A stretch of 64,000 bases of DNA, taken from sequence record PZ445451.1; one strand, written 5' to 3'. The translations under genes and the position numbers were made by a program. Each line of letters begins with the position of its first letter. Positions within the stretch are counted from its first letter, which is position 1. Shown here piece by piece: positions 59,486 to 62,119 of this stretch. Below the pieces are notes generated by a model. The model did not search any database and was not told the DNA's origin. It saw nothing but the letters and a program-made list of their open reading frames with translations. Source of the DNA: a phage.

Positions 59486-59561
59486 GGTTCCATAGCTCAC
59501 TGACGAGAGCGAACACCTCATAAGTGTCGAGGGCAGGGATTGTAACCCTGGGGAACCACCA
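59486..59561 (+). tRNA. tRNA-Met/Ile2 (anticodon CAT), atypical T-loop
   Basis: Hand-folded cloverleaf: 6/7 acceptor pairs, D-stem GCTC/GAGC, anticodon loop CTCATAA, T-stem CAGGG/CCCTG, loop ATTGTAA (non-canonical), CCA encoded. Confidence 0.5.
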
Positions 59562-59680: not shown

Positions 59681-59786
59681 GCCTAGTAGGGTATTTGGTA
59701 ATTCCGAGGCCATCAAAGCCTGAAAAATATGTTAGACCGCTTTGTCTAACTAAATACGAAATATGGTTCGATTCCATAACTAGGCT
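59681..59786 (+). ncRNA. aberrant tRNA-like element (~105 nt; perfect acceptor plus canonical T-arm but no standard D/anticodon arms)
   Basis: GCCTAGT (59681-87) pairs perfectly with ACTAGGC (59779-85); T-arm TATGG-TTCGATT-CCATA; internal hairpin GTTAGAC-CGCTTT-GTCTAAC. Confidence 0.3.
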
Positions 59787-59860
59787 TCAATTTAAATAGT
59801 AATTTTAGTAAAAAATATCTTGACATTTACTTAGTTTTTTTGTTATAGTCGTTATGAAAA

Positions 59861-59942
59861 CGGGGTGTATCTCACCTGACTTCTAATCAGGCGTTAACCG
59901 AGTAATTGGAGTATGCAGGTTCGAATCCTGTCACCCCGGCCA
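59861..59942 (+). tRNA. tRNA-Arg(TCT)-like RNA lacking a D-arm
   Basis: 7 bp acceptor, canonical anticodon arm CCTGA-CTTCTAA-TCAGG, canonical T-arm GCAGG-TTCGAAT-CCTGT, CCA encoded; only 7 nt between acceptor and anticodon stem and a 23-nt insert before the T-arm; TTGACA promoter at 59820. Confidence 0.45.
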
Positions 59943-60005
59943 AAAAGTTTTAAAAACTGCTTGACAAGCAAGATAGTTTTATGTTAGATTTAAAGTATGA
60001 TAACT

Positions 60006-60095
60006 GGAAGGTAGGGCGCAGCGGTGCGCAACCAGGTTTGAACCCTGGCCCATTGTAGCGATACGGTGATGGTTCGACTCCATTATCTTCCTCCA
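60006..60095 (+). tRNA. tRNA-Ser (anticodon TGA), type II
   Basis: Acceptor GGAAGGT, 3 bp D-stem, anticodon arm CCAGG-TTTGAAC-CCTGG, 19-nt variable arm, T-arm GATGG-TTCGACT-CCATT, CCA encoded. Confidence 0.7.
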
Positions 60096-61255: not shown

Positions 61256-61310
61256 ATATCAAAAGCCTCTTGACAAAGGGGCTAATAATATGTTAGAGTA
61301 ATATTGTTAA

Positions 61311-62045: not shown

Positions 62046-62119
62046 GATTTAAAAGAGTATGGTACTCAATATGGCTCCAAACCATAGATCAAGGGGTTCG
62101 ATTCCTCACCTTGCTGCCA
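62046..62119 (+). pseudogene. tRNA-Trp(CCA)-like element with unpaired acceptor stem (probable pseudo-tRNA)
   Basis: Good anticodon arm TATGG-CTCCAAA-CCATA and T-arm-like GGGG-TTCGATT-CCTC ending in CCA, but 5'/3' acceptor strands do not pair. Confidence 0.3.

Follow-up and report, generated by a model that had tools for sequence, protein, structure and literature searches.

A phage-borne, probably functional tRNA-Arg(UCU) whose D hairpin is replaced by a helix of two distant strands

Is an RNA that shows the acceptor, anticodon and T arms of an arginine tRNA, but no D hairpin, still a tRNA, and if so, what takes the place of the missing arm? This question is raised by positions 59861-59942 (+) of the window, i.e., the whole stretch of 64,000 nucleotides of phage DNA (record PZ445451.1) that was analysed. 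It corresponds to Escherichia phage PaulScherrer (Bas60, a phi92-like Justusliebigvirus), namely to the end that contains the tRNA cluster, with 100% identity over the 3 kb of this cluster. A sequence-only reading of the locus had described a promoter-driven, tRNA-Arg(TCT)-like RNA that lacks a D-arm and had left three options, namely a non-canonical tRNA, a tRNA-derived regulatory RNA or a rearranged pseudogene kept under a promoter. The parts of the element and its promoter are as follows.

59820-59849 (+): sigma-70-type promoter with TTGACA (59820-59825), an 18-nt spacer with TG (extended -10) and TATAGT (59844-59849)
59861-59867 (+): acceptor stem 5' strand CGGGGUG, which forms 7 Watson-Crick pairs with CACCCCG (59932-59938), all 7 covarying in the family
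59868-59870 (+): connector of the invariant U8-A9 and Y10 (T or C at position 10 in the family alignment)
59871-59874 (+): 5' strand CUCA of a D-stem-like helix, directly joined to the anticodon stem and identified by covariation and mutual information
59875-59891 (+): anticodon arm with stem CCUGA (59875-59879)/UCAGG (59887-59891) and loop CUUCUAA (59880-59886)
59892-59914 (+): 23-nt segment CGTTAACCGAGTAATTGGAGTAT in the place of the variable loop; the same segment as RNA is CGUUAACCGAGUAAUUGGAGUAU
59892-59898 (+): bulged linker CGUUAAC from the anticodon stem to the 3' strand of the new helix, of variable length among subfamilies
59899-59902 (+): 3' strand CGAG of the D-stem-like helix; G59900-G59902 pair with C59873-C59871, and C59899 lies opposite A59874 (A.C)
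59903-59914 (+): D-loop-like connector UAAUUGGAGUAU with GG (59908-59909), A59910 and a final U, running straight into the T stem
59915-59931 (+): T arm with GCAGG, loop UUCGAAU and CCUGU, read from the sequence, with a covarying stem
59932-59942 (+): acceptor 3' strand CACCCCG, discriminator G73 (59939) and encoded CCA (59940-59942)

The perfect 7-bp acceptor stem, the anticodon arm with its CTTCTAA loop, the canonical T-arm and the encoded CCA that had been reported for this locus are all in place. Likewise, the distance of only 7 nt between acceptor and anticodon stem (TATCTCA, 59868-59874) and the 23-nt segment in the variable region can be read directly from the sequence. With 79 nt plus CCA, the element is longer than a standard tRNA. 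Its anticodon UCU (59882-59884) would read AGA/AGG. Outside the D region, the features are those of a typical tRNA, with 7 bp in the acceptor stem, 5 bp in the anticodon stem, 7 nt in its loop (U33, purine 37) and 5 bp in a T stem that carries a TTCRANY loop.

The Rfam tRNA model RF00005 scores 38.6 bits at 59861-59939, which is above its gathering score of 29 (E-value 1.4e-4 for the whole window and 6e-7 for a local search). In the respective alignment, the D-arm is wholly deleted (15 model positions are reduced to 4 nt) and 20 nt are inserted in the variable loop. No D-arm hairpin between positions 9 and 26 was found, neither in the Rfam alignment nor by ARAGORN in any mode, and the latter makes no call at 59861-59942 in its standard, metazoan-mitochondrial, intron or low-threshold modes. 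Since RF00005 deletes the D-arm and ARAGORN is silent in all modes, we rejected the idea that an alternative alignment provides a normal cloverleaf; the covariance-model search, which the earlier reading had listed among its checks, yields none.

The second such check, i.e., a comparison with homologous loci, revealed the same design in five named phage groups as well as in jumbo phages. That is, BLAST identifies the element at 82-86% identity in unrelated phages, and its hosts cover Justusliebigvirus, Felixounavirus, Mydovirus (Vequintavirinae), Sugarlandvirus (T5-like), Kuravirus (podovirus) and jumbo phages of ~350 kb. A pattern for the middle region matches 54 IMG/VR viral contigs and 87 metagenome contigs (freshwater, marine, wastewater). 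Among 185,579 species genomes, only 2 MAG contigs match this pattern, and the 5,426 complete E. coli genomes yielded no match; the family is essentially phage-borne and nearly absent from bacterial genomes. Acceptor stems are almost wholly different between family members, such that the family is not one recent mobile sequence. A family covariance model (R1) scores 101 bits at the locus, which is its single copy in PaulScherrer, while ordinary tRNAs reach at most 26 bits.

A conserved neighbouring protein gene (synthetase, processing enzyme) was sought across 101 distinct loci and none was found. The largest cluster of neighbour proteins covers 13/101 loci and is made up of spurious ORFs over tRNA genes or of HNH-type endonucleases. 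With no protein gene found to accompany it, the element must depend on enzymes of the host. Two small PaulScherrer proteins annotated as 'tRNA synthetase' (MZ501100 67015-68034, outside the window) were considered as partners and rejected, since nothing ties them to the element; one is YqeY/GatB-like (Pfam PF09424), and for the other Pfam gives no match. Several phages (L005 and a number of Felixounavirus records) have annotated genes for HNH homing endonucleases beside or over the element. The presence of these genes may be connected with how the element spreads horizontally within tRNA clusters.

Next, we consider the amino acid identity. The anticodons of the family are near-exclusively those of arginine, i.e., UCU (most), CCU and ACG, beside a single ACU. 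Arginyl-tRNA synthetase (ArgRS) of E. coli recognises C35, U36/G36, A20 and A/G73, where A20 is an identity element of ArgRS. C35 is present in all members and comes with the U36 or G36 used by the E. coli enzyme. The discriminator is G in the element and G/A in 83/87 members, as in E. coli tRNA-Arg, so the purine at position 73 is present as well. CCA is encoded in 60/87 and the loop CTTCTAA is found in 71/87 members. When the scaffold was searched with the anticodon left free, only UCU was observed among true tRNA-like matches and the additional matches were due to chance. Other anticodons seen on the same scaffold are CCU (L050) and ACG within a TadA-type loop CUACGAA (L085, L111, L121, L140). 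The single ACU member (L089) would read serine AGY codons if genuine.

We also inspected the tRNA genes around the element. In 161 loci, the element is surrounded by full phage tRNA sets (Met, Thr, Leu, Asn, Lys, Ser, Ile, Tyr, Pro, Gln, Gly and others). Only 2-3 of these 161 loci include a canonical tRNA-Arg(UCU), which otherwise ranks among the most frequent tRNAs of phages; two further ARAGORN calls are mis-parses of the element itself. The PaulScherrer genome has no other tRNA with an Arg anticodon. AGA, a rare codon in E. coli, makes up 22.7% of the Arg codons in the window (9.4 per 1000 codons). A canonical tRNA-Arg(UCU) of a T5-like phage (L242, 108-181) nearly matches the element in its acceptor stem (CGGGGUG/CACCUCG), its T arm and the UAU that precedes the T stem. 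This near-identity indicates that the family derives from an ordinary phage tRNA-Arg.

The same data allow for another interpretation, namely a mimic of tRNA-Arg that does not decode. Such an RNA could serve as decoy or sponge for a factor recognising the anticodon arms of arginine tRNAs (e.g., a colicin D-like toxin or an anticodon nuclease that belongs to a defence system), or it could act as a regulator by binding to ArgRS. A non-canonical core combined with an invariant anticodon loop fits this idea, as does the lack of a dedicated partner gene, and phage tRNAs are cited in PMC12916289 as countering tRNA-targeting defences. However, the element takes the place of the canonical tRNA-Arg(UCU) within the phage tRNA sets instead of accompanying it, and all features that a tRNA needs in order to be charged and bound by EF-Tu are kept (7/5 acceptor-T helix, purine 73, CCA, GGA motif). 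The high AGA usage of a phage without any other Arg tRNA also stands against it, and we regard the mimic as unlikely.

To the structure of the D region we now turn. The first search pattern had fixed columns 32-37, 41-45 and 47-55, including the AG of GAG, while the columns of U8, A9 and Y10 were left free. Part of the invariance was thus imposed by the search. Because the AG of GAG had been fixed, the scan was repeated without this constraint; three independent anchors agree.

For 84 distinct sequences, 94.7% of the cells are paired and 18/21 pairs vary on both sides. None of 500 shuffles of these sequences reaches the observed covariation values, and no slid register comes near. The acceptor, anticodon and T helices all covary across the family. 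The unconstrained scan provided helix variants such as CGCA/CGCG, CACA/UGUG, CAGC/GCUG, CAUC/GAUG and CAGU/GCUG. Pairs 11:42, 12:41 and 13:40 of the new helix are Watson-Crick in 103/103 distinct sequences, which show 17 sequence combinations. Among these, 11:42 is C-G throughout, 12:41 is U-A, A-U or G-C and 13:40 is C-G, G-C or U-A, both latter pairs being formed in all 103 sequences. The fourth pair (14:39) is mostly A.C with the alternates A-U, C-G and U-G. A mutual-information scan, which uses no structure information, gives the highest ranks to all proposed pairs (12:41, 13:40 and 14:39 among them) and did not reveal any other long-range pair. Pairing of UCUC with the second GAG (within GGAG, 59909-59912) was rejected, since changes at position 13 are matched by the first GAG alone.

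Given the covariation results, the secondary structure consists of the standard 7+5 acceptor/T helix and an anticodon helix that is lengthened by 3-4 pairs across a bulged linker. The length of the linker depends on the subfamily and ranges from 3 to 10 nt, i.e., AGY (3), CGUUAAY (7) and GTCGTTAAAY (10). In place of the D hairpin, there is a helix formed by two strands that lie far apart (CUCA and (C)GAG). The earlier statement that the RNA lacks a D-arm is therefore right with regard to the hairpin, which is gone, but misses that 59871-59874 pairs with 59899-59902 in a covarying, D-stem-like helix of 3-4 bp.

Thermodynamic folding suggests a different arrangement of the 23-nt segment. Both the minimum-free-energy and the centroid structure contain a hairpin CCGA-GUAA-UUGG (GNRA-type loop) that leaves the 7 nt between acceptor and anticodon stem single-stranded, i.e., a D-armless tRNA with a long variable arm. 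Across the family, 84% of the respective cells can pair. Nevertheless, no pair of this hairpin varies on both sides, and its pair 41:46 is unpaired in 33/84 sequences (columns 47-49 were fixed by the search pattern). Furthermore, the CAGC/GCUG and CAUC/GAUG variants break the hairpin but keep the CUC:GAG-type helix perfectly, and the mutual-information scan does not recover it. On these grounds of covariation we rejected the variable-arm model, which we consider quite improbable.

A decaying or rearranged tRNA-Arg pseudogene that lies behind a promoter by chance would explain why most annotations omit the element and a few call it tRNA-OTHER with an undetermined anticodon, but it is excluded, with next to no probability left to it. 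In 103 distinct sequences, which come from unrelated phages and environments, compensatory changes maintain the pairings of the four helices throughout, with the replacement segments being near-invariant. For the remaining option of the sequence-only reading, a tRNA-derived regulatory RNA, no specific support was found.

Among the three options, the non-canonical tRNA is the one in line with the family-wide conservation, the covariation in every stem, the arginine-type anticodons (with one exception) and the filling of the missing tRNA-Arg(UCU) slot. We consider it rather likely that the element is a functional, AGA-decoding phage tRNA-Arg(UCU) with a non-cloverleaf core formed by a strand-swapped D-stem. 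Because hundreds of unrelated phages share the design, the element is probably a working tRNA, and one of a non-cloverleaf kind that has not been described for bacteria or their viruses.

How such a core might be folded is suggested by the connector that follows GAG. It reads UAAYUGGAGUAU, or UAANYGGAUCAAU in the short-linker subfamily, and its GGA is kept in every variant, including those from the anchor that leaves GGA unconstrained. Among canonical tRNAs of the same loci, an A follows the GG of the D loop in 20/27 tRNA-Arg (74%) and in about 5-20% of most other isotypes, with Ala and His reaching up to 36%. GG-A is thus typical of nearby tRNA-Arg, which fits the established role of A20 for ArgRS. 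The connector as a whole resembles a tRNA-Arg D-loop and may be read as A14 A15 Y16 U17 G18 G19 A20 .. A21, followed by U48. We accordingly propose GG (59908-59909) as the equivalent of G18/G19, A59910 as that of A20 and the final U as that of U48. These D-loop, A20 and Levitt-pair equivalences lie beyond the reach of covariation, since they are based on invariant nucleotides.

The D-stem of a normal tRNA leads with its 3' strand (22-25) via position 26 into the anticodon stem and with its 5' strand (10-13) into the D loop. In the element, CUCA leads into the anticodon stem and GAG into the D-loop-like strand. As both strands continue as in a normal tRNA, the helix, its orientation and the loop can sit in their usual places, with only the connections altered. 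The CUCA strand would take the role of canonical positions 22-26 and the GAG strand that of 10-13. With the GG docking at the T loop and A20 exposed towards ArgRS, the usual L-shape may be retained. The chain would then connect 9 to 22, 43 to 10 and 21 to 48. Judged from the known tRNA fold, these new junctions should span short distances.

Upstream of the element, the claimed exact TTGACA promoter is indeed present. Together with TATAGT it shows 11/12 consensus matches, which makes it the best site of the cluster, and it ends 11 nt before the 5' end of the tRNA. It is identical in phi92 and restricted to phi92-like phages; in the other phage groups, no conserved sequence is found upstream of the element. 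From this early-type promoter of its own, the element would be transcribed by host RNA polymerase. RNase P and 3' exonucleases could trim the transcript to ~79-82 nt ending in the encoded CCA, and host ArgRS would charge it. The charged RNA is expected to decode AGA (and AGG), i.e., codons which the phage uses often and E. coli rarely.

Within the tRNA cluster, promoters much alike (TTGACA, 18-nt spacer with TG, TAnAnT) are located at 59820-59849, 59961-59990 and 61270-61299 (all +). Given these three similar internal promoters, several tRNA genes of the cluster seem to be promoted individually rather than as a single operon.

The cluster contains further unusual tRNA-like genes. A second one without D-arm is located at 62056-62119 (+) and has the anticodon CCA (Trp), with the layout AGUAUGG UA CUCAA UAUGG CUCCAAA CCAUA GAUCA AGGGG UUCGAUU CCUCA CCUUGCU G CCA. 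Its Rfam tRNA score of 22.9 bits is below the threshold and the D-arm is again deleted in the alignment. In 61 phi92-like records, the gene is conserved and has no annotation. One compensatory change in its anticodon stem is seen in Klebsiella phage FKP3, and the copy of Citrobacter phage Tr1 has lost the 5' strand of the acceptor stem; the gene could represent a mini-tRNA or be in decay.

Another unannotated tRNA-like gene at 59683-59790 (+) has an acceptor stem of 7 bp (GCCUAGU/ACUAGGC), D and T arms, a very long extra arm and a 4-bp stem that carries the loop CAUCAAA (A at position 33). It is missing from phi92 and found in 32 records. Compared to Schitoviridae phage UTK0002, compensatory changes are observed in its acceptor, D and anticodon-like stems. 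No Rfam match was obtained for this gene even at E<=10, and the tRNA-Asn with an 18-nt intron reported by ARAGORN's intron mode looks doubtful. With these two additional odd and unannotated genes in the same cluster, the phenomenon may be broader.

Two more calls are atypical in other respects. At 59486-59561 (+), ARAGORN predicts a tRNA-Met(CAT) with an aberrant T loop (AUUGUAA) that does not match the Rfam tRNA model; it is listed as 'hypothetical tRNA' in the phi92 RefSeq record and is unannotated in MZ501100. The tRNA-Ser(UGA) predicted by ARAGORN at 60006-60095 (+) is matched in Rfam by the tRNA-Sec model only (35.3 bits vs. a threshold of 47) and is flagged as pseudogene in the phi92 RefSeq record.

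As a working tRNA-Arg family, the element and its relatives would reveal a blind spot of annotation, since ARAGORN misses these genes and nearly all GenBank records leave them out. It is unannotated in MZ501100 and phi92. More than 100 Felix O1-like records are mostly blank at its position, a few list 'tRNA-OTHER, Nd_NNN' and one gives a 'tRNA' on the wrong strand. Due to this gap, phage tRNA repertoires would wrongly seem to be without tRNA-Arg(UCU).

A more far-reaching reading, which we put forward tentatively and hold with less than even confidence, is that of a natural non-cloverleaf elongator tRNA that works with the ordinary ribosomes, EF-Tu and ArgRS of bacteria, where the D-stem of swapped strands, stacked on the anticodon stem, rebuilds the L-shaped core and which has spread horizontally among many phage lineages. 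If true, the core of a tRNA can be rebuilt with another chain topology and yet serve the standard bacterial machinery, and structural biologists could study in a natural example what a D-arm has to provide for ArgRS, EF-Tu, RNase P and the ribosome. It also raises the question of whether the altered D region shields the AGA decoder of the phage from tRNA-targeting immunity. Horizontal spread was possibly driven by escape from host nucleases or factors that read a normal D-arm; to name evasion of tRNA-targeting defence as the reason for the rewiring is speculation on our side.

In textbooks as well as in recent papers, bacterial and phage tRNAs are held to be cloverleaves throughout, with departures known only from mitochondria or engineered systems. 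We found no prior description of the element, its sequence motifs included, in the open-access full-text literature. The element can be compared with known tRNAs of several kinds.

With canonical tRNA-Arg(UCU), of which T4 tRNA-Arg and E. coli argU are further examples, the element shares the loop CUUCUAA, the 7-bp acceptor stem, the 5-bp T stem with UUCGAAU, the purine at position 73, CCA and GGA. It differs from them in having no D hairpin, with the partner strand of the D-stem and the D-loop-like sequence placed 3' of the anticodon arm. Rearranged segment order is also known from the circularly permuted tRNA genes of Cyanidioschyzon merolae, where segments are rearranged in the gene and the mature tRNA is a normal cloverleaf after processing. 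In contrast, the element has its ends where they normally are, and the rewiring would concern the mature RNA itself.

The D-armless tRNAs of metazoan mitochondria (tRNA-Ser(AGY/UCU), in mammals and nematodes; PMC7609411) likewise have no D hairpin and a short connector between acceptor and anticodon stem, and are still used as adaptors (PMC7609411). They are shortened, often with reduced T arms, have no elbow of GG and T loop and work with adapted mitochondrial factors (PMC7609411). The element, on the other hand, combines a canonical T arm with a GG-containing loop and would need ordinary bacterial factors. Moreover, instead of the short unpaired connector and reduced size of the mitochondrial type, its connector pairs with a strand of the variable region. 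Because it is longer than a standard tRNA, has a full T arm and shows an extra covarying helix, we do not consider it a minimal tRNA of the mitochondrial type. A 2020 review of non-canonical tRNAs leaves phages unmentioned (PMC7609411).

That a tRNA without D-arm can be accepted by EF-Tu and ribosomes without any adaptation, and can also be used by a synthetase, is known from the engineered 'mini HisT' in E. coli (PMC11551756). In contrast to the element, mini HisT is artificial, specific for histidine, simply misses the arm and is limited by degradation (PMC11551756). The same 2024 paper describes all known bacterial tRNAs as canonical cloverleaves (PMC11551756). Finally, allo-tRNAs and 8/4 or 9/3 tRNAs (PMC5389517) are, like the element, natural non-standard tRNAs from metagenomes and phages. 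They alter the lengths of the acceptor and T stems while keeping four arms, whereas the element keeps the standard 7/5 lengths and alters the topology of the D-arm.
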